In this document: positions 127 through 59,128 of the stretch, piece after piece
Position numbering within the stretch: the stretch's first letter is position 1
How the letters are laid out: each line of letters opens with the position of its first letter
From: Minisyncoccota bacterium
GTDB taxonomy: Bacteria; Patescibacteriota; Minisyncoccia; JAHIHE01; JAGLIN01
Direction of reading: 5' to 3'
Length of the DNA: 64,000 bases
NCBI GenBank assembly: GCA_028690055.1
Contig: JAQVBZ010000003.1
Location: forward strand, 7,779-71,778
Program-made: the position numbers and the translations under genes
The notes under the pieces: generated by a model
The model's database searches: none
What the model was told of the DNA's origin: nothing
What the model saw: the letters and a program-made list of their open reading frames with translations, nothing else

Positions 127-1704
127 TTACTTAGAAAGTACCGCACCGGCCAGTTCCCCGGTGTGAACCCCTTTGTCCACGACCAGCTTGCCGTTTATCA
201 CTACATATTCTACGCCTGTCGAATATTGATAAGGATTCTCAAAGCTGGAGCAGTCGTTGATTTTCTGCTCGTCAAAAATCACTATATCTGCAAAATAGTC
301 TTTCTTGAGGAGCCCTCTTTTTGTGATGCCCATCTTCTGAGCAGGAAGAGATGTCATCTTGTAAATCGCCTCCTCCAAGCCGAGAAGTCCTTTCTGCCGA
401 ACGTACTTACCCAGTACGCGAGCGAAAGTGCCGAAACATCGCGGATGTACCAACTCTCCACTTCGAACATATTCGATATTGTACGCGGCATCAGCGGAAG
501 AGATAATACAATACTTGTTCTGCATTTCCTTTTCAATATTCTTCTCTCCCAGGACGCCCTTATCAAACACTATGACATGTCCGCCCGCACTAATCAGGAG
601 TTCAATGATTGCCTCCTCCGGCTCAATGGACTGGCTCTCTGCGATATCGCCGATTTTCCTGCCCACCACTTCGCGCATGTTCGGACAGATAGAAACGATG
701 ATGTTATTGTAATCGCGGTTCATCCCTTTCATTTCTTTCACAATTTTCCCGCGCAGCTCCTGATCCTTCAGGCGTTCAATCATTCTCTTGCGTCCTCCTT
801 CCGGAACCCAATCCGGCAACAAGATATAAAGGACGGAACCGGTGGTATCGTAAGGATAGATATCAAAATTGATGTTAACGCCCTCTTCGTTGGCAAGGTC
901 GATCATCTGAACCGCTCTTTCCATATCAGGCCAATATTTTTTGCCGATCGACTTGAAATGGGATATCTCGATAGAGACTCCAGTCTCCCTGCCGACCTGG
1001 ATAGTCTCATTGACACTGGGCAAAAGCTCCTCCGCCTCACCGCGAATATGGCTAGCGTAACAAGCATCGGCAGATTTCAAAATACCTGTCAGATATTTTA
1101 TTTCTCCGGTACTGGCCATCTTGGAATGAGAAAAAACCAATCCGGTCGACATACCGAAAGCGCCCTCGTTCAAAGCATCGCCCAGCATCTTGCCGATCGA
1201 CTTGACTTCGCTTTCCTTGATTTTCCGTACGTCGTCGCCCATCAACCCTCGACGGAGAGTCTCATGTCCGACCAGAGTTCCGAAATTGAGACCGATATCC
1301 CTTTTCTTCAGTTCCTGCAAAAATTCTTTCGTCCGTGTCCAGTTTACGCTGATATTATCCATATTCACCCACTTGCGCAGCGAACAGACAGAATCAGATC
1401 CCAGCACCGGCGCCAACGACGACCCACAGTTCCCGCCTATGATCGTGGTAACTCCCTGCATTACCTTACTGTCCAATCTCGGAATCGTAAAAAGTGTCCA
1501 AAAGCTATCCGAGTGATCCAAGATGTCAACAAACCCAGGACAAACTATCTTGCCTTTGACATCAATGATTTGTTTCGTCTGGAATTTTCCCGGCAGCTTT
1601 TCCACGGCGGCTATTTTTCCGCCCATGATAGCGATGTCCATATCCGTTCTCTTTGCGCCGGACCCATCGATTACCGTGCCGTTTTTTATGACTAGATCAA
1701 ACAT
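127..1704 (-). CDS. N-acyl-D-amino-acid deacylase (D-aminoacylase)-like amidohydrolase
   Basis: 525-aa ORF. The N-terminus (DLVIKNGTVIDGSG...DIAI.GGKI) and the CPGFVD..H motif, with overall length and layout, fit metal-dependent amidohydrolases of the D-aminoacylase type. Confidence 0.65.
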   Translation of the reverse strand: MFDLVIKNGTVIDGSGAKRTDMDIAIMGGKIAAVEKLPGKFQTKQIIDVKGKIVCPGFVDILDHSDSFWTLFTIPRLDSKVMQGVTTIIGGNCGSSLAPVLGSDSVCSLRKWVNMDNISVNWTRTKEFLQELKKRDIGLNFGTLVGHETLRRGLMGDDVRKIKESEVKSIGKMLGDALNEGAFGMSTGLVFSHSKMASTGEIKYLTGILKSADACYASHIRGEAEELLPSVNETIQVGRETGVSIEISHFKSIGKKYWPDMERAVQMIDLANEEGVNINFDIYPYDTTGSVLYILLPDWVPEGGRKRMIERLKDQELRGKIVKEMKGMNRDYNNIIVSICPNMREVVGRKIGDIAESQSIEPEEAIIELLISAGGHVIVFDKGVLGEKNIEKEMQNKYCIISSADAAYNIEYVRSGELVHPRCFGTFARVLGKYVRQKGLLGLEEAIYKMTSLPAQKMGITKRGLLKKDYFADIVIFDEQKINDCSSFENPYQYSTGVEYVVINGKLVVDKGVHTGELAGAVLSK

Positions 1705-1822
1705 AACATTTTTGTGATTTGATTACCTGTGTTGATTCTATTATACAATCCTTTTTGTTTTTCTTCAATTCTAAAATAGGGGTGTCATAATGAATTCAGC
1801 CGAAGAATAATAAAGAGAATAT

Positions 1823-2899
1823 TTAAAAAGTATAAACCCCGCGCCCCAGAAGTCCAATTACCAAACCGACAGCACACATGAAATAAGAGATAACCCAAAA
1901 ACGCATTACGATTTTGGACTCCGACCAACCCTTAGCTTCAAAATGGTGGTGGATGGGGGCACTGAGAAATACCTTCTTATGCCTGAATTTTTTGGAAGTC
2001 AGTTGGATGATTACCGAAAGCGATTCGATAACAAGGATGAATCCCACGAATGGCAGGATAAGAAAAGAATCCGTGAGCATCGCTACCGTCCCAAGCGTCA
2101 CCCCCAGCGCCATCGATCCTGTGTCGCCCATAAAGAACCGCGCGGGAGGAATATTGAACCAGAGGAATGCCAAGAGGGCTCCGATTATGGCGCCACAAAA
2201 CATTGCAAGCTCTGTCTTGCCCTGCATAAAAGCAATGGCGGCAAAAACTGCGAGAGCCGGGAGGACTACCCCGCCCGCCAGTCCATCCAGACCGTCCGTT
2301 TCATTAAGAGAGAAGGAAGTGGCCACGATGATAAAAATAAACAGCGGGATATACCAGATGCCGATAGTGAGGTCGCCGAACGCCGGGATATGGACTGTGT
2401 CCCAACCGAGACGAAAATAGAACCAGTACGCCCCGACAACCGCCACGAATAGATAAAGTAGCATCCGATCTTTCATACTGAGTCCGCCGCCCTTGGGTCC
2501 GATACGGAATACCCCCATCATATCATCAAGCATCCCCACAATCGCCGCAAGCACCATCAGCCCAATAGGCAGGAAAGTCTCACTCCGATTAAGAAAGTCC
2601 AGCGACTCGAATATAGAGAAGTGAGTTAGTGACGATAGTAGGGAGAAAAGTAGCGCCAATATCAGCACTACCCCCCAAATAATGATTCCGCCCATAGTTG
2701 GTGTGCCACGCTTTTTTTCGTGTAAAGCCGTAAAAACAGGAGTATCTCCATCCGCACGGATCTGTTTGCCAATCTTATATTTATAGAGATAGTGTGTAAG
2801 CAGCGGAGTCAGCGCCATAGCCACGGCGAAAGAAATAGAGGCAATACCGAAGACTCGCACGATTTCATACACGCCGTAAGAACCTTCAAAGGGAATCAT
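1823..2899 (-). CDS. mraY: Phospho-N-acetylmuramoyl-pentapeptide transferase
   Basis: 358 aa and polytopic. Conserved MraY motifs are present: GTPTMGG, DDxxG, NLTDGLDGLAGG, FMGDTGS, and HHHFE near the C-terminus. Confidence 0.9.
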   Translation of the reverse strand: MIPFEGSYGVYEIVRVFGIASISFAVAMALTPLLTHYLYKYKIGKQIRADGDTPVFTALHEKKRGTPTMGGIIIWGVVLILALLFSLLSSLTHFSIFESLDFLNRSETFLPIGLMVLAAIVGMLDDMMGVFRIGPKGGGLSMKDRMLLYLFVAVVGAYWFYFRLGWDTVHIPAFGDLTIGIWYIPLFIFIIVATSFSLNETDGLDGLAGGVVLPALAVFAAIAFMQGKTELAMFCGAIIGALLAFLWFNIPPARFFMGDTGSMALGVTLGTVAMLTDSFLILPFVGFILVIESLSVIIQLTSKKFRHKKVFLSAPIHHHFEAKGWSESKIVMRFWVISYFMCAVGLVIGLLGRGVYTF

Positions 2900-2913
2900 A
2901 AGTAGAATTTTAG

Positions 2914-3321
2914 CTATTTAACTTTTTTAATGCTAGCATCCATGAATCTTTTGTCAATCAAAAAAACCGATAAAAATATGCCCAGGCTGTCTATTGTCAC
3001 GTCCACCGCGTTACCGCTACGGCCGGAAATAAAAGTCTGGTGGTATTCGTCACTAAGCGCGAAAGTGAGCGCAAAAAGCGCAGCGTACGCGATAGCCCGC
3101 CGCCTGCCGATATTCTGCGCCGCCGCCCGATAAAAAAGGAAGGTGAGGACAGCGTACTCCGTGATATGAGCAATCTTGCGCAGGATCAAATCCCAATTAT
3201 CGGCAAAGTCGCTGCGCAAACTGGGAATACTGGAAAGGTAAAATATGCCTGCGCACCAGAAAAAAACCGGAAGCCAATAAAAGATTATCGATCGCTTTTG
3301 TTTTTTGTTTAGCGCAATCAT
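2914..3321 (-). CDS. VanZ-family membrane protein
   Basis: 135 aa with 4 TM helices. The central motif 'RKIAHITEYAVLTFLFYRA' and the C-terminal 'DEYHQTFISGRSGNAVDVTIDSLG' are characteristic of VanZ-like proteins. Confidence 0.65.
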   Translation of the reverse strand: MIALNKKQKRSIIFYWLPVFFWCAGIFYLSSIPSLRSDFADNWDLILRKIAHITEYAVLTFLFYRAAAQNIGRRRAIAYAALFALTFALSDEYHQTFISGRSGNAVDVTIDSLGIFLSVFLIDKRFMDASIKKVK

Positions 3322-4472
3322 GAATTATAAATTATTCCATAAATTATACCGGAGAGATAAACGAGTATCATCAAAAAAGACATCCCTTTGGAAATGTTGA
3401 TTTCATATTCTGGCCTGCGATCGCCTTTTTCTTTCGCATTATAGAAGATAAGAATGATTAAGATGCCTACAAGTCCACCGGTCACGCTTCCGGTAAAAGT
3501 TATAACCCGGATAAAATCCCGATACCCGATAAGAAAAAATAAATAGGGAACGATGGACGCCAAAAACCAAGATGAATCTTCTTTCATCCGATAATCGTAT
3601 TGAAAAATCTCCTTCAGTGCAACATTGGAAACGAGATAAGAGGTGATTGTTGCCAAAAACCCGAGAAAAAAACCGGCAACAATAACTCCGTCACCGATAA
3701 AGTGACTAAGCCCGACAAAAGATTCTTCGGAAGTCAGATCGCCCGTCACACCCACTATGGCCGCGATGAAAATAACATAAATCAAAGTATAGAGAATTGT
3801 CCCCCAAGTAAGCACCTTCTTAATCCTATTTTTTCTTTTTGAAATGATGCTAATAATCTCCGGGACTGCTGAGCTTGCCCCCAATGAAAAAAGTATGACA
3901 CCGAAAGGCAGAAAAAACTGAGTAAAATCACTGGTCATATAATTCCCAGTATCGATATAGGGGGCACTCTTAAATGATACCACCCCGACAATCACGACCA
4001 AGAGCAATACCATCCACGACTCTACCAAGCTGAAAATCTTAAAATCAAAACGAGTAACGATAAAAATAAAAACAAAAGTTAAGGTGGAATATAAAAATTC
4101 ATCTCCTCCAAGAGAGGGCGAAAGAAGTGAATTCAGGAAAATACCGGACAAGATGATATAGACCATATTGCCGGAATAAAAAGACAAGAAAGAAGCAAAG
4201 GAAGCAAGTTGTTTGCCGGTTCCACCCAAATATCTTTTTGCACAGCCCACCAGTCGGCAGCGTTTTTTGCTGCGAAGGATTATCTCCCCATACATAAGAT
4301 TGGTCACCAGCATCATCACGCCCAGAAGAAACATCAGGGCCATCGAAGGAAGAAATCCCGCCTTTGCTATTACATACGGCAGACCAAAAATTCCCGCGCC
4401 TATTGCAGTCCCGATCAGAGTGGCCATCGCCATCAGAAATTCTTTATCTATCAATCTTCCCTTTTTTGCCAT
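3318..4472 (-). CDS. Polytopic membrane transporter (aromatic amino acid/Trp-Tyr permease-like)
   Basis: 384 aa with about 11 predicted TM helices. The stop overlaps the VanZ start. Family assignment rests only on size and topology. Confidence 0.35.
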   Translation of the reverse strand: MAKKGRLIDKEFLMAMATLIGTAIGAGIFGLPYVIAKAGFLPSMALMFLLGVMMLVTNLMYGEIILRSKKRCRLVGCAKRYLGGTGKQLASFASFLSFYSGNMVYIILSGIFLNSLLSPSLGGDEFLYSTLTFVFIFIVTRFDFKIFSLVESWMVLLLVVIVGVVSFKSAPYIDTGNYMTSDFTQFFLPFGVILFSLGASSAVPEIISIISKRKNRIKKVLTWGTILYTLIYVIFIAAIVGVTGDLTSEESFVGLSHFIGDGVIVAGFFLGFLATITSYLVSNVALKEIFQYDYRMKEDSSWFLASIVPYLFFLIGYRDFIRVITFTGSVTGGLVGILIILIFYNAKEKGDRRPEYEINISKGMSFLMILVYLSGIIYGIIYNS

Positions 4473-5504: not shown

Positions 5505-5850
5505 ATAATTATCGGTTATTTCCTCTTTCCTCTTTTTTTCTCTTCTCTTCTTCCTTCTCCTTGCGCATCATTTTAATACCTTCCAGAGTCAGCCAGATTG
5601 GCATGAAGAGGTTCAGATATTTTTCATACAAACCTTCGTATTCCTTTTTTGCCATATTTTTATCAAATTAATTTTTCATAACCGACTATCGGTTATTTCC
5701 TCTTTCCTCTTTTTTTCTCTTCTCTTCCTCCTTCTCCTTGCGCATCATTTTAATACCTTCCAGAGTCAGCCAGATTGGCATGAAGAGCTCTAAATATCTT
5801 TCATATAAACCCTCAGTTTCCTTTTTCTTGCCTACTCTTGTCCACATATT
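5505..5850. repeat. Tandem direct duplication (2 x ~165-180 bp, about 90% identical), each copy carrying a 48-53-codon ORF on the minus strand
   Basis: Units 5509-5655 and 5686-5847 share the polypyrimidine tract ...ggttatttcctctttcctctttttttctc... and ...gcgcatcattttaataccttccagagtcagccagattggcatgaaga.... On the minus strand they translate to MAKKEYEGLYEKYLNLFMPIWLTLEGIKMMRKEKEEEKRKKEERGNNR and MWTRVGKKKETEGLYERYLELFMPIWLTLEGIKMMRKEKEEEKRKKEERGNNR. Confidence 0.8.
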
Positions 5851-5854
5851 TTGA

Positions 5855-8701
5855 TCAAATTTGTTTCAATTGTTCCACTTCAACACGAAAAGTGTCGCCG
5901 CGCTTGATATTGCCCTTAAGGAATTCCACGGCGATGAGATTCTCCAGCTTCTCCTGCATGGTTCGTTGTAAGAATCTCGCCCCATACTCCGCATTATACC
6001 CGACTTCTACCAAATAAGAAACCGCTTCGTCGCTGAGCTCGACTTTGATGCCCTGCGCCTCGTCCAGTCTCTTAGCGAGACCCTTGATCTGCAGTTGAGC
6101 GATCAGGAGTAAATTCCGCGGCGTAAGGGAGTGAAAAACGATCTTATCCGTGAAGCGATTCAGGAATTCTGGAGTAAAGTACTGCAAGAGGTAAGGATCC
6201 AGCATCTCTAAGATTCTATCATTATCACTATTCTCGTCAACAAATATCTTGCTCACCTCTTTGCTTCCGGCGTTGGAAGTGGCGATAATTATGGCGTTGG
6301 TAAAATCCACCGTCCGCCCCAGATTATCCGTCAGCCGCCCGTCGTCAAAAACTTGCAAAAAAAGGTTCAGAACATTCTTGTTCGCCTTCTCCAATTCGTC
6401 CAAGAGCAATAGAGAGAACGGATTGCGTTTGACCGCCTCGGTCAGGATACCGCCACCGGCATTATCATCACTGCCTTCCGAAGAAGAATAGCCAATCAGT
6501 TTTTCCACACTGTCCACCGTCTGATATTCGCTCATATCCAGCCGGATCATCGCTTCTTCATTGCCATAATAAATCTCCGCCAGCGCTTTGGCAAGCTCGG
6601 TCTTACCCACCCCGGTCGGCCCTATGAATAAAAATGCTCCGATAGGGCGGTTTTGCAATTTCATCCCCACCCGCACCCGACGAATAGCTGAAGACACGGA
6701 CTTGATTGCCTGATCCTGCCCGATAACCCGCCGATGCAGACTCTCTTCCAGATTCAAAAGTTTTTCCGCCTCGTTAGAATTTATACTCTCCAGAGGAATG
6801 CCGGTTTTTTCCGTAATGATTTTCATGATATCCTCGTCGCGCAGTGTCTGCCCCTCGCCCCGGCGACGTACCTCTACGGCTGTTTCCGAGAGCAAATCGA
6901 TCGCCTTGCCGGGCAGCAAACGGTCGGGGAGATATCGATTGGAAAGTTCCACTGTTTTCTTGATAGCGCCGTAAGTCATTGTCACGCCCTCTCGTGCCTC
7001 GATATATCCCGCTTGGATAGCCAGGACCTGGAGTGCGTCTTTCTCGTTAAGTTCCTCCACTTTCACTGTATCAAAACCGTTAGCAAAATCGCCGCGCGGT
7101 TCAATGAAGCGATGATAATTACGATAATCGGTCGAGCCGATAATTTGAAAAAGTCCTTGTGAAAGGATAGGAGACAAAATTTTGGAAGCGTCGAATCCTT
7201 CCCCGTTTCCCGCCGCCGCCAGATTATGAATATCGGGAATATATAAAATAATGTTCCCGCCGCGTCCCATATCTTCCAAAACTTTTTGAATCCTCAGCTC
7301 CAGGTCTCCGCCAGCGCTAGCCCCCGCAATCAATGCGGTAATATCCAACACCACCAGTCTCTTGTCGCGCAGCGTCGGCAGGACCTCGTCGTGGATCATC
7401 CGGTTGGCCAATGCTTTGACAATCGTGGTGCGTCCGCTACCCTCCTCGCCGACAAGTAACGCATTGTTCTGACTGGTTCTTTCCAAAATCCGCATCAGTT
7501 CGTCCAGCTCTCTACTGCGATTAACGACATTTCCTGTCAGCCCCGAACGGGCGCGATCAGTCATATCGTAACTGAATTGATCTAGCTCGGGAGTAGTGCG
7601 CGCCGTCCAAGCTTTATTCATTACCGTATGTGTAATCTTACGCGGACGCCCATTTCCTATTCGCACCTTGCCCAAACTCCTCGTCCAAAGCAAGGCGCTG
7701 CGGATGTCCTGTAAATCAAATTTGGCATCGTGAAAATATTTTTCCATATCTTGGTCACAGAAAAGCGCGAGAAAAAGTGCTTCCGGCTCGATCATATCGA
7801 AACCCGCGATTATACTTTCCTGCAGCGCGAAAATCGCGAGCTGCTTCATTTCCGGGCTCATCACGGTCCCTTTCTTTCTGTTGTAATGATCGTTTGTAGG
7901 CAGATGCTTAATGGCATCGTCCAAAAACGCACCGAAAGCCTTAGTATCTATTTCCATTCTCATCGTCAAACTCCTGATATCATCATCTCCCAGCAGAACT
8001 CTCGCCAGATGAAAAACACCGGGGGCCTGCGCATGATCGTGCGCCAGATCCAATGCTTTCTTCAACATGCCGAGCGTCGAAACGGAGGCGAAGGCGGACA
8101 CGTCTATGGCTTTTTCCAGCTTGGCAGGATTTTCCTCATAGAAAGGCTTGAATTCTGTATCTGTAAGACTGATTTCCTTGCGGGAAAGATCGGCGGTTCG
8201 GGCAAAATAATAACAGCACATCGCGCCCAAAAGGCCCGACCAAAAAAGCAGAGTTCCCACTCCCCGCTCCGTAAAAATCACACCGAGAGCCTCTACAATA
8301 TTCAAAGCGAAATAATAGGCGGCAATAACAAGGGCGCCGAAGATATCATCCTTCGCAAGACGAACCGAGTCTACATCGCTTTTGAAACTCACAAAAAAAT
8401 CCCCATTTTGAGAAACAATGAAGAAAACTCCGTAAATCAGGGCTGCGAACGCCAAGAAATAAGAGAGGAATCGCGCCGAAGATTGCAGCGCGTGACCGAA
8501 CAATCGGAAAAAAGAAAGATTTCCCGACAAGTCAGAACCCCAGAAATAATCCCCCGCGCCGCGGACGCGCAACAAAACTCCGCCGCCATCGCAGGTAGGA
8601 CATTTCGACCCGTTATCCCGAAATCCGTCAGCCTGACATTCGGGGCACCGGATCACTTCCGACACGGCTTGATTCTCTTGTTTTCCTTGTTCCTCTGGCA
8701 T
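5855..8701 (-). CDS. Hsp100/Clp-family AAA+ ATPase with N-terminal zinc ribbon and transmembrane anchor (ClpA/ClpC-like; degenerate D1, canonical D2)
   Basis: 948 aa. An N-terminal C4 zinc ribbon (CPEC...CPTC) is followed by 3 hydrophobic helices, two Clp_N repeats (HLARVLLGDD / EALFLALFCDQD), a degenerate D1 (P-loop GEEGSGRTT, no Walker B Glu), the RYLPDRLLPGKAIDLL linker, a canonical D2 (GPTGVGKT, LLLDELEKA) and a GARFLQR C-terminal small domain. Confidence 0.85.
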   Translation of the reverse strand: MPEEQGKQENQAVSEVIRCPECQADGFRDNGSKCPTCDGGGVLLRVRGAGDYFWGSDLSGNLSFFRLFGHALQSSARFLSYFLAFAALIYGVFFIVSQNGDFFVSFKSDVDSVRLAKDDIFGALVIAAYYFALNIVEALGVIFTERGVGTLLFWSGLLGAMCCYYFARTADLSRKEISLTDTEFKPFYEENPAKLEKAIDVSAFASVSTLGMLKKALDLAHDHAQAPGVFHLARVLLGDDDIRSLTMRMEIDTKAFGAFLDDAIKHLPTNDHYNRKKGTVMSPEMKQLAIFALQESIIAGFDMIEPEALFLALFCDQDMEKYFHDAKFDLQDIRSALLWTRSLGKVRIGNGRPRKITHTVMNKAWTARTTPELDQFSYDMTDRARSGLTGNVVNRSRELDELMRILERTSQNNALLVGEEGSGRTTIVKALANRMIHDEVLPTLRDKRLVVLDITALIAGASAGGDLELRIQKVLEDMGRGGNIILYIPDIHNLAAAGNGEGFDASKILSPILSQGLFQIIGSTDYRNYHRFIEPRGDFANGFDTVKVEELNEKDALQVLAIQAGYIEAREGVTMTYGAIKKTVELSNRYLPDRLLPGKAIDLLSETAVEVRRRGEGQTLRDEDIMKIITEKTGIPLESINSNEAEKLLNLEESLHRRVIGQDQAIKSVSSAIRRVRVGMKLQNRPIGAFLFIGPTGVGKTELAKALAEIYYGNEEAMIRLDMSEYQTVDSVEKLIGYSSSEGSDDNAGGGILTEAVKRNPFSLLLLDELEKANKNVLNLFLQVFDDGRLTDNLGRTVDFTNAIIIATSNAGSKEVSKIFVDENSDNDRILEMLDPYLLQYFTPEFLNRFTDKIVFHSLTPRNLLLIAQLQIKGLAKRLDEAQGIKVELSDEAVSYLVEVGYNAEYGARFLQRTMQEKLENLIAVEFLKGNIKRGDTFRVEVEQLKQI

Positions 8702-8710
8702 TGCAAAAAA

Positions 8711-9079
8711 TTATCCGACTAAAAGATAAAACAGGTTTTCCCAAAACATCACGAGCGCGACAGGAGGAAGTAATAGCCAGAGAGCGTAGCAGGCGATAAT
8801 AAGAAACGAAAGAAAAATTGCGAGTAGAATCCCGAAAAACACCCGGCACAGACGAAAAATCGGACCAATCAACTTGCCGATAAGGGAATAATCGCCATAG
8901 ATGGGCTGAAAGATCAGTTTCAGATTGATTAAGACACCAATATCCCTCCCCACACCCTTAATCATATTTACTTCCCTGTGCCAGAAATCTTGCGATCCCC
9001 GAACATACCAAAAAGACAAAAAGCCTGATATGCCTTTGAAGATTCGAAAAGGTGATAAGATAAAAGAGTCAGTTGCCAT
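8711..9079 (-). CDS. Small hypothetical membrane protein
   Basis: 122-aa ORF with two hydrophobic segments, immediately upstream of the Clp gene on the same strand; no recognisable family. Confidence 0.35.
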   Translation of the reverse strand: MATDSFILSPFRIFKGISGFLSFWYVRGSQDFWHREVNMIKGVGRDIGVLINLKLIFQPIYGDYSLIGKLIGPIFRLCRVFFGILLAIFLSFLIIACYALWLLLPPVALVMFWENLFYLLVG

Positions 9080-9301: not shown

Positions 9302-10915
9302 ATGATTAACAAATACATCATAGAAGAAATCGTCAAGCGGGCCGCTGCGGGGAAGAAAGATTTTTCCGAAAAAAAGATATCTAAAATCAAGCGGGCCGCC
9401 TCGAAAAAATTCGGCACCTCCTGTCCTACAAACATTGAGCTACTACGTGAGTATCGCAAACTGTTAGCGCAGAAAGAAATTGTAAAAAGCGAAATCATCG
9501 AGAAAGCGCTGGTCACAAAAGAAATCCGCACCGAGTCTGGCGTGGCTATCGTGGCGATTCTGACCAAACCTTACCCCTGCCCGGGAAAATGCGCCTACTG
9601 CCCCGACGAGAAAAATATGCCCAAGAGTTACCTTTCCAACGAACCGGCCGTGATGCGCGCGGTACTCACCAAATTCCGTCCGTACGAGCAAGTGAAAGCA
9701 CGATTGGAATCGCTGGAAACCACCGGACACAAGACCGACAAGATTGAACTCATCGTAATGGGCGGGACTTTTTCGTATCTTCCCAAACGCTATCAGACTT
9801 GGTTTACCAAAGAATGTTTTCGCGCCTGCAATGAATTTGGCAAAGAAAAGGGAATTTATAAAGATTTAGATTTGGAAGCACAGCAAAAGAAAAACGAAAA
9901 AGCTAAAAAAAGAATCATAGGGCTGACGCTGGAAACGCGTCCGGATTATATCGACGAGAAAGAAATTCTCAGTATGCGCAAATTAGGCGCCACGCGCGTC
10001 GAACTCGGAGTGCAGAGTGTGTATGATGATGTTTTGAAGCTCAACCGGCGCGGACACGGCGTAGCGGAAACCGTGCGCGCCACCCGGCTGCTCAAAGAAG
10101 CGGGCTTCAAGGTCAACTATCATATGATGCCGGAACTCCCCGGCTCCGACGTGGAGCGGGACGTGCAAATGTTCGCGGAGCTTTTTGGCAATCCCGATTT
10201 CCAACCGGATATGATAAAGGTCTATCCCTGCGTAGTCGTCAAAGGCACCCTCATCTATAAATGGCTGCGAACGGGAAAATATCAACCCTATTCCGACCAA
10301 GAGCGCCTCGACATGCTAGCGCGCATCAAGAAGAATCTCCCCTACTATGTCCGCGTCACGCGTCTCATCCGCGACATCCCCTCGACCAGCATCATCGCAG
10401 GCAACAAGATTACGAACCTGAGACAAGCACTCGAAATGAAAAGTGAAAAGGAAGGATGGAAATGCAAATGCATCCGCTGCCGGGAAATACGCAGCGAGAC
10501 GCAGGTAGAAGAAAAAGATTTGCAACTTTTTCGCGAAAGCTACGAAGCATCCGACGGCAAAGAAATTTTTCTCACTTTCGAGGACAAAAAACGCGAACAC
10601 CTCTATTCGCTGCTGCGGCTAAGGATAAATTCCGAAGAAGCCGGTGCCAATCATTTCATCCCCGAACTACGAAACGCCGCTCTCATTCGCGAAGTCCATA
10701 CTTACGGCAAACTCGTGCCAGTCAAAACCCGTGACTCCAAATCCGCCCAGCACATCGGACTCGGGAGAAGGCTTCTTTTGGAAGCGGAAAAAATAGCCCG
10801 TGAAGAATTCGGAGCAAAAAAAATCGCCGTCATCAGCGGTGTGGGCGTGCGTGATTATTACCGTAAAAATGGTTATAAGTTAGAAGGAAGTTATATGGCG
10901 AGAAAATTATTATAG
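9302..10915 (+). CDS. elp3: Elp3-like tRNA uridine(34) carboxymethyl-modification radical-SAM / GNAT acetyltransferase
   Basis: 537 aa. A radical-SAM Cys cluster (CPGKCAYCP) is followed by the Elp3 signature RVELGVQSVYDDVL..RGHGV and a C-terminal GNAT-like domain. This two-domain layout is diagnostic of Elp3/KAT9 homologues. Confidence 0.8.
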   Translation: MINKYIIEEIVKRAAAGKKDFSEKKISKIKRAASKKFGTSCPTNIELLREYRKLLAQKEIVKSEIIEKALVTKEIRTESGVAIVAILTKPYPCPGKCAYCPDEKNMPKSYLSNEPAVMRAVLTKFRPYEQVKARLESLETTGHKTDKIELIVMGGTFSYLPKRYQTWFTKECFRACNEFGKEKGIYKDLDLEAQQKKNEKAKKRIIGLTLETRPDYIDEKEILSMRKLGATRVELGVQSVYDDVLKLNRRGHGVAETVRATRLLKEAGFKVNYHMMPELPGSDVERDVQMFAELFGNPDFQPDMIKVYPCVVVKGTLIYKWLRTGKYQPYSDQERLDMLARIKKNLPYYVRVTRLIRDIPSTSIIAGNKITNLRQALEMKSEKEGWKCKCIRCREIRSETQVEEKDLQLFRESYEASDGKEIFLTFEDKKREHLYSLLRLRINSEEAGANHFIPELRNAALIREVHTYGKLVPVKTRDSKSAQHIGLGRRLLLEAEKIAREEFGAKKIAVISGVGVRDYYRKNGYKLEGSYMARKLL

Positions 10916-15538: not shown

Positions 15539-16036
15539 CTACTTCTTCTCCGCTTTCGCCTTCTTTAATTTGAAGACTTTTCTCTCATTATATTCCGAAA
15601 CTTTTCCGTTATTCCACTGCTGTACCGGGCGCAAATATCCCACCACGCGCGAATAAACTTCGCAGGGCTGTTCAATCAGACATTTGGGGCAAGTAAAATG
15701 TTCTCCTACCAAATAGCCATGATTCGGGCAAATGCTGAAAGTCGGAGTCAGCGACAGATAAGGCAGAGAATGCTTCTCGAAAATCTTCTTAATGATCAGT
15801 TTAGCCTCTTGACCGCTCGGCAGTCTCTCTCCTACAAAAGCGTGTAGCACTGTTCCTCCGGTATATTTGGTCTGTAACGGATCTTGCAATCTTACCGCTT
15901 CAAAGAGATCGTCAGTATATCCTACCGGCAGCTGAGTCGAATTGGTGTAATATGGTTCTCCTTTTGCTTTAGCTTCCTGAATTTTTGTAGCTTTTGTCAT
16001 AGTTTTAAAATTATGTTTTAAAAATATCCGGTCCAA
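15539..16036 (-). CDS. Stand-alone NrdD C-terminal zinc-ribbon/glycyl-radical domain (anaerobic ribonucleotide reductase fragment or spare-part-like protein)
   Basis: 165 aa. The sequence YYTNSTQLPVGY...LQTKYTGGTVLHAFVGE...TPTFSICPNHGYLVGEHFTCPKC...EVYSRVVGYLRPVQQWNNGKVSEYNERKV matches the conserved C-terminus of class III RNR, where the RVxGYL glycine-radical loop is followed by WNxGKxxEYxxRK. No NrdD body lies upstream. Confidence 0.6.
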   Translation of the reverse strand: MDRIFLKHNFKTMTKATKIQEAKAKGEPYYTNSTQLPVGYTDDLFEAVRLQDPLQTKYTGGTVLHAFVGERLPSGQEAKLIIKKIFEKHSLPYLSLTPTFSICPNHGYLVGEHFTCPKCLIEQPCEVYSRVVGYLRPVQQWNNGKVSEYNERKVFKLKKAKAEKK

Positions 16037-30094: not shown

Positions 30095-30445
30095 ATGGAT
30101 TCATCACAAGAGATGACACGCGGCGCCATCGAACTTGTCGTGCTACAGACACTCTCCAACTACGGAGACAACTACGGCTATGAGCTTATCAAGATCATCG
30201 CGCAAAAAAGTGAGAGTATTTTTGAATTCAAAGAAGGAACACTTTATCCTTTGCTTTATCGTCTGGAGGAAAAGAAACTGGTAAAGAGCTATCGCCAAGT
30301 CGCCGAGAGCGGCAAAGAGAGAAGATTCTATCACATCACTGCCGCCGGAGAGAAAAAGTTGGCAAGCAAAAAATCAGAATTTGAGACTTTCCTCGCGGGG
30401 ATGGACGCAATCCTCAAGCCTAATCATTTAAGCTTGGAGAGATGA
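30095..30445 (+). CDS. PadR-family transcriptional regulator
   Basis: 116 aa with a winged-HTH containing the PadR signature (GAIELVVLQTL...GYELIKII...EGTLYPLLYRLEEKKLV). Confidence 0.85.
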   Translation: MDSSQEMTRGAIELVVLQTLSNYGDNYGYELIKIIAQKSESIFEFKEGTLYPLLYRLEEKKLVKSYRQVAESGKERRFYHITAAGEKKLASKKSEFETFLAGMDAILKPNHLSLER

Positions 30446-32073
30446 AGAACCGAACAATCCATAAACAATATGTGGACGACATAATCCGGGAGCTTCCCAT
30501 ATCCGAATACACCTCGCGATTTTGCGAGGAGCTTTTGGAGCACTTGGAAGACTGCGAGGAAGATTTCAATGATCAACCAGGGGCTGATAGTCCGAAACAA
30601 ACTGTGCGAAAAATCGGAGACAAAGATTTGATTATCCGAACCTACAAAGAATTTCACCGCGAACGTCACTCCAAACTCCGGCGGCTGGAACTCTCTTTTT
30701 ATGTCATATTTTCCTGGCTGATATTTTTTATTACCTCGACGATACCTAACTATTTAGAATCGACTTATCTCTACTCCGATCACCCCGCCCCCTTGTTTTC
30801 TGGCATCATGATTTTTTGTGCCGCCATCTTCTGTACTCTGGCTATTAATTATACCTTCTATAATTTTCTATCCGTCCGTCTATCCCTCCACTCGGAAAGT
30901 GACGATCGCAAGCAAAAATTGCTGGTCATATTCTTTTTTCTGCCAGCGATAAGCGCGCTGGTGAATCTTATGACTGCCTTCTCCGCCCCAGGGCAAGCTC
31001 AGCTCTGGGGAATATTGATTGCGCCCCTGCCCTTCCTCAGCGCCTTCCTGCCGGCGCTGATTAATTTTAAGATTATTTGCAAAAACAAAAAAAACGTCGG
31101 ACTCGACGCCACTCTACCATATCTGACTCTAACCGTTTTTTTGGTTTTTCTGCTTTTGGTCGCCGCCACAGACAAGATACTGTTTTTAGAAACACTGTCA
31201 CCCCTGCAAGCGATAGTCAATATTTTTTACATATTCCATTTCATATTATTTATCCTTATCGATGTCATAGTCGACTTGCCCTTTTTCGCACTCTTTCCTA
31301 TGGATAATTCCAATTCCGCCTCTTATGTGGTACCCGTACAAATGGTGAGCGTCAACATCGCCATCGCCGCCGCATACGTTATGTCGCTGGGAGCAATAGG
31401 TGTTTTAGCACTTCGCTCCGCGCGCAAGCAAAAAAATCTTGCAGAAAAAAGATGGAATAGAGCTGTCGGATTGATACTCTGCGCTTATGCCATATTTATG
31501 TTTCTGCCAATAAAATCCATAGACACACCGGCAATCAACTGGAATGTACCGGCGAAAGAAATTTCCAAACAAATTGAAAAGAAACAGTTCGGAATCTTTT
31601 ACAGTTTCATCAAATTCAAAAACGATGATGAGGGGTATGTTTACAATTATGACACTTGCAGCACCGAGAACGGCTTTATCGCCAAGCAAAGTTCAGGACA
31701 GATTTTCTACTTCGACGTGACGGGAGCTTCATCGATCAGAGAGGTAAAGACGGTGCGGATGGAGAAGCAAAAGGGGAAAGAATATTGTGCACAGATCCCG
31801 ACAAAAGGATATGACGCCGAAAGCCTTTTCTTTTTCCAAGAAGGATGGAAGTGTCTGGATAAAGAGGATACCCCTCTTCCCATGGGCAGGCTCGAAGGTT
31901 GCGCAAAAATCACTTACGCGGACCGCGAGATATTTAAGGAAACCTATGAACATTCTACGAGCGAGATCCAGTCCATCGAGATGAGTGCCGACGGAAACTG
32001 GGCGCTGATCAAGATGGCTGACGTTTACAGCGTAGATTTCTTGTACCTGGCAGATTTGCGAGAACCGAAATAA
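30442..32073 (+). CDS. PadR-associated membrane sensor (N-terminal HAAS/DUF1700-like domain, polytopic, C-terminal extracytoplasmic domain)
   Basis: 543 aa. The start overlaps the PadR stop (ATGA). The N-terminal ~80 aa (YVDDIIRELP...EELLEHLED...IGDKDLIIRTYKEF) fit the HAAS/DUF1700 pattern usually paired with PadR. About 7 TM helices follow, then a ~180-aa C-terminal soluble domain. Confidence 0.55.
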   Translation: MKNRTIHKQYVDDIIRELPISEYTSRFCEELLEHLEDCEEDFNDQPGADSPKQTVRKIGDKDLIIRTYKEFHRERHSKLRRLELSFYVIFSWLIFFITSTIPNYLESTYLYSDHPAPLFSGIMIFCAAIFCTLAINYTFYNFLSVRLSLHSESDDRKQKLLVIFFFLPAISALVNLMTAFSAPGQAQLWGILIAPLPFLSAFLPALINFKIICKNKKNVGLDATLPYLTLTVFLVFLLLVAATDKILFLETLSPLQAIVNIFYIFHFILFILIDVIVDLPFFALFPMDNSNSASYVVPVQMVSVNIAIAAAYVMSLGAIGVLALRSARKQKNLAEKRWNRAVGLILCAYAIFMFLPIKSIDTPAINWNVPAKEISKQIEKKQFGIFYSFIKFKNDDEGYVYNYDTCSTENGFIAKQSSGQIFYFDVTGASSIREVKTVRMEKQKGKEYCAQIPTKGYDAESLFFFQEGWKCLDKEDTPLPMGRLEGCAKITYADREIFKETYEHSTSEIQSIEMSADGNWALIKMADVYSVDFLYLADLREPK

Positions 32074-32245
32074 ACGCCTAAAATTAAAATAAGATTAGAA
32101 CATTAATGTAAAGATAAATTTTATATCTTCGTTCCTATCACCATGTCATAAAAATAAAAACATTACCGGATTCTCCCCTCTTCCGATACTACAAATTATT
32201 ATTTTGTAAATCGGCCCAAGAAATTGACCATATAAATGTAGCGCG

Positions 32246-33910
32246 ATGAAAGAAATAGCAAATACCGATAAATATGTGGACGACATCATCAAAGAGCTGC
32301 CGCCTTCACCACGCACGCGGAGATTCCGCGAGGAGCTCTTGGAGCATATAGCCGATGCCGAAGAGGATCTGCAAAATCAAGAAAATAATTTTAACCAAAT
32401 CAAAACAAAAGTCATGCAAAAAATCGGAGACAAAGACACACTAACCAAAAGTTACGTCGATTTCTATAGAAGCAGCCTATCCTCTCTGTGGCCGATAGAG
32501 CTGCTCATCTACATCGCCCTATCTTTGTGCGTCTTTCTCGTCACGGATCTTATCCTGAGTCCGTATGAACTGATTACAGACTCCTCGCTCTGGATCTTAA
32601 AAATAGCAGTGATCATTTTCTCCATCTTGGTTGCATATGTTTTCAACCGCATCGTGTATACTTTTGCTGCTAAACGCCTATCCCCGCACTTGTCCAGCAA
32701 GAAAGCCCACATTTTGGTAGCCTGGTCACTCGTAATCATGCCCATCCTCTCCTTTATTTACGGCTGGGCATACATTCTTTATTGGGAAGTGCAAAAGTCC
32801 GGCCTGGAATTTTTCATATCCGAATACTTCGCTATCACGGTGTTAAAAATTGCGATTATGCATCTGGCTGCCGCCATCGCTTTCGGCATCATCCCACGCC
32901 GAAAGAAAAAAGTTTCTACCCTCAGCAATAAAGTCCCGTATCTTCTCCTGTTCATCTTTCTGACAATAATGTTTTTTTCCGTCATGCTAGCCCAGCAAAA
33001 ATCCGACTCGCTCTCCGCGTCCGGGCAATTCATAAATGTACTGACATCTTATCTGGCGATGCCGATTAATATTTTATATTCTTTCCTGGACGGCCTGGAT
33101 GTCTATGCTCCGAGCGGTGGGCAGATTTTTACCCTCAACGTTTTCGCCGCCCTGGATTCGTTAGCATTCTTCAGAATGTTTTTGGCACTCTTGATCATTA
33201 CAGCCGTGGGAGGTGTTTGGCTTATCATTTCCGCCGATAAATCCAAGTCAGAAAACGGCAAAAATTGGAAGCGCGCCACAGGCATCGCTCTTATCGCCTA
33301 CTCCGCCTTTGTATTGCTCCCCATTAACAAAGTGCAGCAAGAGGATCCGATTTTGAACGTTCCAGCTTTCAACGTAACGCAGAAAATCGAACAAGATCAA
33401 CGGGGGTTACTCTATCCGGCACTAAAATATGTAGACCAAAGTATTAGAAATAATGCCTTCTACGCGGTCTATAGAGATGGCAATCTCTTTACTATCGGAC
33501 AATCATTCGGTGCAGCGGGCAACTATTTTCTGATCGATGTAAACAACGTTCCGGAAGGACAAGATCCTGTGATTTCTACCAACGCGAAAGAAAAAGGGAT
33601 GGAATCCTACACGCTGGAATTCAATCCGTTCGAGGGAATGATTCCACAGGGATTCGAATGCCCCGATTGCATAACAACCAGGGAAAACGACGAAGCAGAA
33701 GACATATCGTACTCCTCTTATGATGATTCAGGAACAAGAACGTACTATTCTGCAGATTATACAAATTTGACCTACAACGGGCACAGGCTCTTAGCCGAGG
33801 GAAAAAATGTAAAACCTCACGAGATCAAGGTAAGTGCCAATCAAGAGTGGGCGCTCATCGAGTTTGATAGTGAGCAGTTATATCTGATAGATTTGAGAAG
33901 ATTGAAGTAG
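32246..33910 (+). CDS. Tandem paralogue of the PadR-associated HAAS membrane sensor
   Basis: 554 aa. The N-terminal cytoplasmic module (YVDDIIKELPPS..EELLEHIADAEED..IGDKDTLTKSYVDF) and the C-terminal tail (...EWALIEFDSEQLYLIDLRRLK vs ...NWALIKMADVYSVDFLYLADLREPK) are conserved with the upstream gene. The central TM and extracellular parts have diverged. Confidence 0.55.
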   Translation: MKEIANTDKYVDDIIKELPPSPRTRRFREELLEHIADAEEDLQNQENNFNQIKTKVMQKIGDKDTLTKSYVDFYRSSLSSLWPIELLIYIALSLCVFLVTDLILSPYELITDSSLWILKIAVIIFSILVAYVFNRIVYTFAAKRLSPHLSSKKAHILVAWSLVIMPILSFIYGWAYILYWEVQKSGLEFFISEYFAITVLKIAIMHLAAAIAFGIIPRRKKKVSTLSNKVPYLLLFIFLTIMFFSVMLAQQKSDSLSASGQFINVLTSYLAMPINILYSFLDGLDVYAPSGGQIFTLNVFAALDSLAFFRMFLALLIITAVGGVWLIISADKSKSENGKNWKRATGIALIAYSAFVLLPINKVQQEDPILNVPAFNVTQKIEQDQRGLLYPALKYVDQSIRNNAFYAVYRDGNLFTIGQSFGAAGNYFLIDVNNVPEGQDPVISTNAKEKGMESYTLEFNPFEGMIPQGFECPDCITTRENDEAEDISYSSYDDSGTRTYYSADYTNLTYNGHRLLAEGKNVKPHEIKVSANQEWALIEFDSEQLYLIDLRRLK

Positions 33911-58158: not shown

Positions 58159-59128
58159 ATGTCCTATCAACAGCTTACATTAAAACAACGTTTTCAACTA
58201 GAGACACTACGGCAGACTATGGGAACCCAGAAAGAGATAGCGGTGTGGATGAGAATAAGCGCTAGTACTGTTTCTCGTGAACTCAGAAGGAACAGGAAGG
58301 AAGGTTATGAGGCGCGCAGCGCCCATAGCCTCTGCAAGAGGCGCAGGAAAGAAGCCAAGCGTGTAACCAAGAAGCTCTTGCATGATAAAGAGGTTTATAC
58401 TTTTGTGAAAGATAAAATCACAATAGGTTGGTCACCGAAGCAGATCGCAGGACGCTTGAGAGATGATACGGGATTGATTATCTGTCACGAGACCATCTAT
58501 GATTTTATCTATACGAAAAAGAAAGAGTGGATCGAATGTTTAAGAAGAAAGAAAAACAAATACCGCAGGAATAAAGGAACCAAAACGAGGGAAAAAAGGC
58601 GAGAAGAAGCCAAAAAAAAGGATTGATACCAGACCGAGTGTGGTGGAAACGAGAGAAAGGATCGGAGACTGGGAAGGAGGTACTATCGTAGGAGGAGAGA
58701 AGATAACAGGTATCATTACCTCTGTAGAAAGGAGAAGTGGATGTTTATTGGGAGATCTATTTTTAAAAAAGAAAGCGGAAGTAATCAAGATAAAAACAGT
58801 TGCCAGATTCAAGAAGATTCCGGTTGATAAGAAATACACCATTACCTATGATAATGATGTAGAGTTCTCAGAGTATGAGATGATTAAGAAAGAAACAGGA
58901 ATGGATATATACTTTGCTTATCCCTATTACTCATGGGAGAGGGGAACCAATGAGAATACCAATGGACTTCTGAGACAGTTCTTTCCTAAAAAAAGTATGT
59001 TTGCTAAACTGACACAAATGGACGTTGATAAAGCCATTCTGCTTATCAACAATCGTACCAGGAAAAGACTTGGCTATCTGACCCCTTACGAGGTTTTTAT
59101 TGAAGGGAAGAATTGCAGTCCAAGGTAG
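58159..59128 (+). mobile_element. IS30-family insertion sequence; transposase split by a frameshift in an A8 run at about 58608-58616
   Basis: OrfA (58159-58626) carries the IS30 HTH (KEIAVWMRISASTVSRELRRN). OrfB (58640-59128) carries the DDE domain (GDWEGGTIVG, YDNDVEFSEY, YSWERGTNENTNGLLRQFFPK). Reading across the A8 tract in the +1 frame joins them as ...AKKKRIDTRPSVVETRERIGDWEGGT. The terminal inverted repeats were not resolved by eye. Confidence 0.8.

Follow-up and report, generated by a model that had tools for sequence, protein, structure and literature searches.

Proteins of the Hsp100/Clp group are, in the textbook view, soluble threading motors with pore-loop tyrosines, two working rings (D1 and D2) and coupling to either ClpP or Hsp70. 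Here we describe a gene whose product appears to have been rebuilt from this chassis into something rather different. It lies in a stretch of 64,000 nucleotides (hereafter the window; contig JAQVBZ010000003.1, positions 7,779 to 71,778, G+C content 43%) from a Minisyncoccota bacterium, one of the Patescibacteria, which account for a very large share of bacterial diversity. The protein, which we call membrane Clp, is predicted to be tethered to the membrane and to have a catalytically silent D1 and an active D2. It has lost the pore-loop tyrosines and the elements that couple Hsp100 proteins to ClpP and Hsp70, and its gene follows that of a small putative membrane protein, the partner.

Three soluble Hsp100 types invite comparison. 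ClpB/Hsp104 shares with membrane Clp two AAA+ modules, probably a Clp_N-type N-domain, a D2 with its ClpB_D2-small domain and catalytic residues, and the lack of a ClpP loop; unlike ClpB, membrane Clp has no M-domain and would have no coupling to DnaK, its D1 is predicted to be dead, its pore tyrosines are lost, and it carries a zinc ribbon and a membrane anchor. ClpA, whose D1 chiefly supports hexamerisation, is alike in its D1–D2 spacing without an M-domain and aligns in a single stretch, but membrane Clp lacks the IGL loop, the active D1 and the pore tyrosines of ClpA, and is membrane-anchored. ClpC/ClpE provides the best match among solved structures, both by sequence and by fold, and ClpE has an N-terminal zinc finger. 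Membrane Clp differs from this pair in the absence of the short M-domain, of the VGF loop and of evident MecA-type regulation, and in the anchor inserted between zinc finger and N-domain.

More distant systems are alike in single respects. FtsH (with HflK/C) is an architectural analogy only: it has an N-terminal two-span anchor, a hexameric AAA+ ring below the membrane and membrane partners, but belongs to a different AAA clade and has a single ring, a C-terminal metalloprotease and an aromatic pore loop. Torsin ATPases (with LAP1/LULL1) are related to Clp D2, are membrane-associated, have no aromatic pore loops and need small membrane-spanning partners; however, they are eukaryotic, lumenal and single-ringed, and have no Arg finger of their own, whereas R849 of membrane Clp is invariant. 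NSF (in its D2) and Pex1/Pex6 (in D1) devote one ring, which binds nucleotide without hydrolysing it, to assembly or structure and the other to hydrolysis. These proteins differ from membrane Clp in being soluble members of another AAA clade that keep aromatic pore loops in the active ring. Finally, ClpI of Actinomycetota is an additional double-ring Clp class defined bioinformatically (PMC10149685); unlike membrane Clp it has intact ATPase modules, unfolding motifs and an M-domain, and the abstract mentions no anchor.

A first-pass annotation of the window, made from the sequence alone, had not recognised the architecture as a described one. The searchable literature bears this out: we found nothing in it on a membrane-anchored bacterial Hsp100 or on Clp proteins of Patescibacteria, and the main text of a transposon-sequencing paper on Saccharibacteria mentions neither Clp, AAA nor chaperones. 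The sequences are already public under generic names; the architecture, together with the partner, is without a description that we could find.

An Hsp100 protein with two unequal rings

The gene is encoded on the minus strand, with its ATG at 8701 and its stop codon at 5855-5857. The 948-aa Clp gene of the first-pass annotation thus exists; a plus-strand reading of the same interval was discarded, the translation being riddled with stops.

5855..8701, minus strand: putative membrane-anchored class-I Clp/Hsp100 paralogue, 948 aa (open reading frame (ORF), domain and homologue searches, NCBI record)

Pfam recognises AAA_2 (E=8e-51), ClpB_D2-small (8.7e-21) and AAA_lid_9 (2e-12), the first AAA module being matched weakly. 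Solved structures of ClpC, ClpB and ClpA are matched with E-values down to 1e-135 (ClpC best), and ClpA aligns as one stretch, its residues 24-736 opposite residues 226-943 of membrane Clp. With tandem AAA+ modules, an AAA lid, an AAA_2-type D2 and a ClpB_D2-small domain, the protein is assigned by its sequence to the two-ring class I Clp/Hsp100 superfamily. An AlphaFold model of the full-length protein (63 sequences; mean predicted local distance difference test score, pLDDT, 79.5) retrieved only ClpC, ClpB and Hsp104 in a fold search of the PDB, a search that is uninformative on the N-terminal module.

Within the superfamily the protein falls short of the named types. Its top NCBIfam match, the ClpB equivalog TIGR03346, reaches 565 bits (cut-off 1232); the ClpA equivalog TIGR02639 scores 504 (cut-off 993), the ClpV/TssH equivalog TIGR03345 505 (cut-off 885), and the ClpG and ClpK exception models 470 and 467 (cut-off 1900). 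No type VI secretion genes occur among the neighbours examined. FtsH was considered as an identity and rejected: two Clp-type rings extend to the C-terminus, and no FtsH-type Peptidase_M41 figures in the top 25 of the 46 Pfam matches. A role in anti-phage defence was likewise rejected, since the PADLOC matches (DolB, PDC-M37B) cover only the generic D2 (637-821) and the neighbours are housekeeping and envelope genes.

Motifs of D1 were compared with those of B. subtilis ClpC and three canonical ClpBs.

6857..7549, minus strand: D1 AAA+ module, aa ~385-615, predicted pseudo-ATPase (alignments to ClpC and ClpBs, family counts)
D1 P-loop: canonical GEPGVGKTA, here GEEGSGRTT (K424R)
D1 pore loop: canonical AGTKYRGEFE, here AGASAGGDLE, with no aromatic residue
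D1 Walker B: canonical IILFIDELH, here IILYIPDIH (D489P, E490D)
D1 Arg fingers: canonical ALERRFQ, here DFANGFD (RR to NG, 541-542)

The first-pass annotation had called D1 dead by sequence, and so it appears: alignment does not restore the P-loop Lys, which is Arg as had been read, and the pore loop KYRG is indeed replaced by SAGG. The Walker B motif had been misplaced. LVVLDITAL is the strand before pore loop 1; the catalytic Glu is nonetheless missing from the true motif, as is the Asp. The Arg fingers, whose loss had gone unnoticed, are gone as well. The three substitutions (K to R, DE to PD, RR to NG) predict a D1 that is not catalytically competent. Sensor-1 T524 is retained, and the P-loop glycines G418, G421 and G423 are invariant; because these glycines persist despite catalytic death, D1 is under selection.

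D2 is a different matter.

6134..6784, minus strand: D2 AAA+ large domain, aa ~640-856, with K700, D768/E769, N810 and R849 (Pfam AAA_2 8e-51, conservation)
5867..6127, minus strand: D2 small domain, aa 859-945, with sensor-2 GARFLQR (R909) (Pfam ClpB_D2-small 8.7e-21; R909 invariant)
6449..6493, minus strand: D2 pore-1 loop, aa 737-751, GYSSSEGSDDNAGGG, rich in Ser, Asp and Gly (alignment to ClpC GSPPGYVGYDEGG and to ClpB)

Walker A (GPTGVGKT), Walker B (LLLDELEKA), sensor-1 N810, the Arg finger R849 and sensor-2 (GARFLQR) are all present, as the description of D2 as canonical had implied, and D2 is predicted to be catalytically complete. Its pore loop does not follow suit. Where canonical proteins have GSPPGYVGYDEGG, membrane Clp has GYSSSEGSDDNAGGG, a loop without the canonical Tyr that varies across the family and is predicted to be disordered (pLDDT <50 at 740-748). 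The claim that this is an expanded GYVG loop fails: Y738 occupies the Ala/Ser position of G-A-P-P-G-Y-V-G, where many relatives have Ser, it is not conserved, and the pore-loop Tyr itself is absent. Neither tyrosine motif of ClpB is therefore found, KYRG of D1 being SAGG and GYVG of D2 being YSSSEGSDDNAG.

Family counts were made on two sets, one of 98 close and mid-distance relatives and one of 147 family-like representatives of 50%-identity clusters taken from an exhaustive search, alongside canonical controls.

D1 Walker A: Arg 55 and Lys 43 in the set of 98; Lys 116 and Arg 27 in the set of 147; Lys in all canonical controls
D1 Walker B DE: 0/98; 19/147; all canonical controls
D1 Arg fingers RR: 0/98; 9/147; nearly all canonical controls
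D1 pore aromatic: 0/98; 5/147; nearly all canonical controls
D2 pore aromatic: 9/98; 26/147; all canonical controls
D2 Lys, Asp-Glu, Asn and Arg: 98/98; 147/147; all canonical controls
D2 sensor-2 Arg: 98/98; 146/147; all canonical controls

The Lys-to-Arg change in D1 is thus not family-wide, Lys being retained in 43 of the 98 relatives. Judged from these counts, the D2 motor is absolutely constrained, with D1 catalysis and the aromatic grip progressively lost across the clade.

Loss of the coupling elements

From D1 sensor-2 to the D2 P-loop membrane Clp has 95 residues, against a ClpB median of 217, and alignment with three ClpBs shows a deletion of ~120 residues at the site of the coiled-coil M-domain. 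By the same spacing count none of the 98 relatives has an M-domain. The first-pass annotation's ClpA-like spacing without M-domain is thereby upheld, and so is its statement that the ClpP-docking loop is absent: the tripeptide [ILVM]G[FL] occurs in 0 of 98 relatives, and the loop is six residues shorter than that of ClpC. Because there is neither an M-domain nor a ClpP loop, independence of ClpP and of Hsp70 is plausible.

The N-terminal module

The N-terminus of membrane Clp is shared by ~60 full-length homologue clusters (54-88% identity), and the identical 948-aa protein is present on seven contigs from several samples. One copy is the NCBI record MDD3006173.1 ('AAA family ATPase', in a metagenome-assembled genome of Candidatus Pacebacteria); the adjacent record, MDD3006174.1, is the small upstream partner ORF. 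Since the same protein recurs on seven contigs and the same N-terminus in ~60 clusters, the fusion of the N-terminus to Clp is not an assembly artefact, and the objection that it might be a separate gene or the product of a frameshift fails. An alignment of 63 homologues (32-88% identity) has a mean column identity of 64%, pointing to purifying selection along the whole of Clp. A word-indexed search with the N-terminal 365 aa alone returned one match; the broader homologues came from a full-length search and from the exhaustive HMMER search.

8543..8662, minus strand: C4 zinc ribbon, aa 14-53, two CxxCxGxG-like knuckles (invariant cysteines, AlphaFold strands)
8408..8470, minus strand: transmembrane span 1, aa 78-98 (hydropathy 2.3, family charge profile, AlphaFold helix 63-98)
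8270..8344, minus strand: amphipathic hydrophobic helix, aa 120-144 (charge and hydrophobic moment across 63 homologues)
8201..8260, minus strand: transmembrane span 2, aa 148-167 (charge profile, AlphaFold helix 148-169)
7667..8104, minus strand: Clp_N-like N-domain, aa ~200-345, ~8 main helices (ClpA alignment, weak Pfam match, AlphaFold 207-343)
7559..7642, minus strand: clade-specific linker between N-domain and D1, aa 354-381, RPRKIxHxVMNxAWTARxTPELD (alignment conservation)

The C4 zinc ribbon had been correctly read: C19, C22, C34 and C37 are invariant in the 63-sequence alignment, and AlphaFold places strands at 14-18, 42-46 and 50-53 around the two knuckles. For four of four divergent members the best Pfam match of the ribbon is DnaJ_CXXCXGXG (PF00684; E 3e-4 to 1.4e-3), at 19-21 bits, below the cut-off of 32.7, followed by Anti-TRAP and BSD2. 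We take this as a resemblance to the DnaJ cysteine-rich domain rather than membership of it; with two repeats in place of four, the ribbon would hold one zinc centre.

The first-pass annotation had placed about three transmembrane helices after the ribbon. The outer two (78-97 and 148-167) hold up: both are nearly charge-free and of low hydrophobic moment across the 63 homologues. Span 1, preceded by an amphipathic helix (aa 63-77), is without charges in 51 of 63 homologues and has a positive N-terminal flank (R66, K74, R77); in span 2 L151, F153 and W154 hardly vary, and lysines are frequent in the flank behind it (K168, K170, K174, K175). The middle helix (~121-143), in contrast, is amphipathic, with a mean of 1.9 charged residues per sequence and a hydrophobic moment of 0.36, about three times the 0.12 and 0.10 of the firm spans. 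It may be interfacial, or buried in an oligomeric bundle, and its status as a membrane span is uncertain. We infer a topology of two spans with both termini in the cytoplasm, because the positive-inside rule points that way at both ends and the ATPase requires cytoplasmic ATP. The intervening loop of ~50 residues, which would carry the amphipathic helix, is short and poorly conserved (99-147).

Two Clp_N repeats had been proposed to follow the anchor. A Clp_N-like N-domain is backed by the ClpA alignment, which begins at residue 226 (ClpA residue 24), and by some eight AlphaFold helices (207-343). The Pfam evidence is weak and reaches the second repeat only (E=0.002; 18.7 bits, cut-off 20.7); the database record lists a Clp_N hit. 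Behind the N-domain lies the clade-specific linker, in which T366, T370, L373, D374, D379 and T381 are invariant in the 63 sequences and R354, M361, N362, A364, W365, A367, R368 and P371 nearly so. Its WTA[RK]xTP motif is kept in distant members and is not found in ClpB, and the conserved linker is predicted to be disordered (pLDDT <50 at 347-352 and 359-367). It could serve as a docking or autoregulatory peptide.

A small gene coupled to membrane Clp

Immediately upstream of membrane Clp is a short ORF that ends 9 nt ahead of the Clp start codon.

8711..9079, minus strand: partner, 122 aa, without family assignment (ORF; homologues upstream of Clp in other loci)

The partner has a long N-terminal helix, then LFxP[ILM]YxDYSxxGRxIGPxFR as a conserved motif and, over ~40 aa, a hydrophobic stretch in which an LP(P) kink is conserved. 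It matches nothing in Pfam, NCBIfam or PADLOC. Its AlphaFold model is all-helical (pLDDT 81), and a PDB fold search with that model gave nothing better than E=4.5 and no channel-like fold. Forty homologues were found, every named one of them 'hypothetical'; for at least seven of the 40 the longest contig is equal in size to that of a listed Clp homologue.

In 12 of the 14 loci that could be assessed, which come from distant lineages, membrane Clp is directly preceded by a partner homologue (~115-143 aa) that overlaps it or lies no more than 22 nt away: the window and L084, L086, L087, L089, L001, L021, L052, L090, L091, L092 and L093. It is missing in L088 and L078, and in L002 the end of the contig precludes assessment. 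A profile of close partner homologues scores 37-175 bits in the positive loci, except for a marginal 17 bits in L021. This ancient and tight coupling of Clp and partner is the strongest functional clue that the locus offers, and was missing from the first-pass annotation.

One database protein, P0066 (618 aa), is an apparent in-frame chimera of the C-terminal membrane segment of a partner and a Clp without zinc ribbon. It is either a true deletion and fusion or an artefact of assembly or gene calling.

Distribution among Patescibacteria

The exhaustive HMMER search returned 48,646 matches, and the best 150 representatives all have E<=1e-130. GYVG is lacking in 147 of these 150; at least one hydrophobic segment precedes D1 in all but ~13 (several of which are truncated proteins), and roughly a third also have a CxxC...CxxC ribbon. 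Among the source names are Pacebacteria/Paceibacterota, Minisyncoccia, Wolfebacteria, Liptonbacteria, Falkowbacteria, Saccharibacteria and Parcubacteria. When the D1–D2 core of 80 sampled relatives was placed in a rough neighbour-joining tree with 36 canonical ClpB and ClpC sequences, 77 of the 80 fell in one clade, apart from the canonical ones. This rough tree suggests that membrane Clp belongs to a large Patescibacteria-specific clade and is not a one-off, a point that had escaped the first-pass annotation.

A separate scan of contigs, keyed on generic D2 peptides (GPTGVGKTE), yielded 80 loci, mostly ordinary ClpB or ClpC. Six of them hold members of the family: L001, L002, L021, L052 and L078, which were analysed, and L077, which was left out. 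The members in L002, L052 and L078 (with a partner in L052) come from co-assembly bins labelled uncultured Gammaproteobacteria; either the labels of these bins are wrong or the bins contaminated, or the family is not confined to Patescibacteria.

The Falkowbacteria locus L089 encodes (1226-3868, minus strand) a canonical ClpB of 880 aa with M-domain, KFRG and GYIG, ~2 kb from the membrane Clp–partner pair. As both occur in this one locus, membrane Clp is an additional paralogue and not a replacement of ClpB.

What membrane Clp might do

With a probability that we put roughly at 0.55, membrane Clp is a membrane machine powered by D2, independent of ClpP and Hsp70, that works with the partner and engages its substrates in a non-canonical way. 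The Clp hexamer would then use D1 as a non-hydrolysing ring for assembly or structure and D2 as its sole motor. Both termini of the anchor would be cytoplasmic, so that the D1 face would lie, along with N-domains and zinc fingers, against the inner side of the membrane, and the anchor would form a membrane collar with the hydrophobic segment of the partner. The machine would act without ClpP and without DnaK on clients held non-canonically, for instance by clamp-and-release or by remodelling, in part, those segments of membrane or envelope proteins that lie in the cytoplasm; processive Tyr-driven threading would be unlikely. Its field of action would be the cell envelope or division, if the recurrent neighbours (MraY/GT4, mraZ-rsmH-penicillin-binding protein, ftsEX, membrane-anchored cyclophilin) are a guide.

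Several points weigh against this reading. Function is deduced here from sequence and gene context, and any physical interaction of Clp with the partner is putative. That the pore loops have lost their aromatics is no proof that translocation is lost. Some basal members of the clade still have DE in D1 (19/147) or carry an aromatic residue in the D2 loop (26/147), and for this reason the 'dead' features are derived and not clade-defining. The topology was drawn from the positive-inside rule and the need for a cytoplasmic ATPase, and a three-span alternative may hold. Lastly, the envelope and division neighbourhood is heterogeneous, and in small, tightly packed Patescibacteria genomes any linkage beyond the partner could be incidental.

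A wider version, which we offer only tentatively, is that membrane Clp and its partner of ~120 aa constitute a Patescibacteria-wide, ATP-driven membrane machine on an Hsp100 chassis whose mechanism is something other than Tyr threading: a nucleotide-gated clamp, a mechanotransducer acting on envelope or division proteins, or a gated conduit. A clade spanning much of Patescibacteria has rebuilt the Hsp100 chassis by tethering it, silencing a ring, losing the tyrosines and coupling elements and adding a partner. If the clade is active, then either an Hsp100 ring can do its work with no aromatics in its pore loops or the fold has been given a new membrane-associated task, and either outcome would widen the mechanistic range of AAA+ proteins. 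Such a machine would be a functionally new class of Hsp100, possibly a core and targetable component of ultra-small episymbionts, and would explain what a conserved pair of uncharacterised genes does in organisms about whose cell biology very little has been charted. The Saccharibacteria relatives are genetically tractable, which makes the question testable.

The first-pass annotation had proposed a membrane-anchored unfoldase with one active ring, probably working without ClpP. The analysis supports the anchor, the dead D1, the intact D2 and the lack of M-domain and ClpP loop, but not the unfoldase as worded, the D2 loop having lost its Tyr. Its further suggestion, extraction or quality control of membrane proteins, would make membrane Clp a classical threading unfoldase, drawing substrates through the axial channel from the D1 side under the power of D2. 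We consider this unlikely. As in FtsH, an N-terminal anchor does bring the D1 entry side up to the membrane; D2 is an intact ATPase, the N-domain and zinc finger could capture substrate, and 26 of 147 clade members have an aromatic residue in the D2 loop. Yet the aromatic with which ClpA, ClpB, ClpC and FtsH grip their substrates is absent from both pore-1 loops (0/98 in D1, 9/98 in D2), and in ClpB mutation of the D2 pore-loop Tyr abolishes disaggregation. It is because the one active ring has no pore-loop Tyr, its loop being variable, acidic or Ser-rich and disordered and so unlike a conserved gripping element, that canonical threading or extraction is doubtful.

More doubtful still is a motor for transport or gating, in which some 24-30 membrane helices of a hypothetical 6:6 Clp–partner assembly would form a channel or collar, and D2 would move a polymer or gate the conduit. 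HSP101–EXP2 in the Plasmodium PTEX translocon and mechanotransmission by FtsEX are the analogies. The tight, ancient coupling to a small membrane protein would suit such a motor, as would the conserved intramembrane LFW motif and the adjacency of ftsEX, pilin-like/PilM, GT4 and half-size MFS genes in several lineages. However, there is hardly any extracytoplasmic domain (the loop 99-147), no channel-like fold was recognised for the partner, both the complex and its stoichiometry are hypothetical, and known Hsp100 translocation runs from D1 to D2, which here leads away from the membrane.

That membrane Clp is an ordinary ClpA- or ClpC-type partner of ClpP to which an anchor has been added is very improbable. 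Many relatives are annotated 'ATP-dependent Clp protease ATP-binding subunit' (the query itself just 'AAA family ATPase'), ClpC is the best solved-structure match and the spacing is that of ClpA; against this, the docking tripeptide is absent from all 98 relatives and its loop is shortened, the scores lie below every NCBIfam equivalog cut-off, ClpA and ClpB included, D1 is dead by sequence and the pore tyrosines are gone. That the gene is an artefact or in decay (its first 180 aa a separate gene joined on by frameshift or mis-assembly, or the whole a pseudogene relic) is effectively refuted: chimeras such as P0066 show that artefacts or deletions of this kind arise, but identical copies from independent samples, ~60 clusters with ribbon, anchor and invariant cysteines, and the high column identity leave it next to no room.

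Genomic neighbourhood and other features of the window

Downstream of Clp, starting 7 nt past its stop codon, is a tiny ORF, which is followed by a second copy of itself.

5686..5847, minus strand: tiny ORF copy 1, 53 aa, FMPIWL hydrophobic core and Lys/Glu-rich tail (a called gene in L081)
5509..5655, minus strand: tiny ORF copy 2, 48 aa, tandem duplicate (direct repeat)

The two copies lie within a direct repeat of 140 nt (5510-5649 and 5687-5826; 92% identical, 177-nt spacing); in L084 and L086 the ORF is single-copy. It has no match in Pfam, NCBIfam or PADLOC. As a universal third component of the system it was ruled out, being kept only in close Paceibacteria relatives and not beside distant members. 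A scan of the operon region for promoters and terminators gave counts not above those of shuffled sequence.

Further out, the neighbours of membrane Clp lean, loosely, to cell envelope or division. Downstream of Clp in the window are genes for MraY, VanZ and an amino-acid permease, with FtsEX 5 kb upstream. A membrane-anchored cyclophilin lies downstream in loci of the Paceibacteria type. In L052, L078 and L002 the ORF predicted next on the Clp strand encodes a GT4/MraY-type transferase, which in L089 is close downstream; L021 has mraZ-rsmH and a penicillin-binding protein gene downstream, and L078 has mraZ-rsmH on the upstream side. L088 has ftsEX upstream and pilin-like/PilM genes downstream. 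L001, L090, L091 and L093 share an arrangement in which uracil-DNA glycosylase is followed by the partner, membrane Clp and a half-size MFS protein (~220 aa). The Clp proteins of these four loci belong to a shorter subgroup (~845 aa) without zinc ribbon, from Saccharibacteria, Liptonbacteria and two other lineages.

Divergent from the partner–Clp operon, and syntenic in L084 and L086, is a gene on the plus strand (9302-10915) for a bacterial Elp3-type radical-SAM/GNAT tRNA-modification enzyme (TIGR01211, 605 bits; cut-off 350). Elsewhere in the window, on the minus strand at 15539-16036, an ORF of 165 aa looks by eye like the C-terminal end of the anaerobic ribonucleotide reductase NrdD (glycyl-radical and zinc region) only, and may be a fragment or part of a split gene. 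The interval 30095-33910 (plus strand) opens with a PadR-family regulator (TIGR03433, 90 bits where the cut-off is 101.8). Behind it stand two ORFs, paralogues of 543 and 554 aa, whose N-termini are similar and which match nothing in NCBIfam. Finally, two adjacent ORFs of 155 and 162 aa at 58159-59128 (plus strand) resemble, by eye, a split IS30-type transposase.

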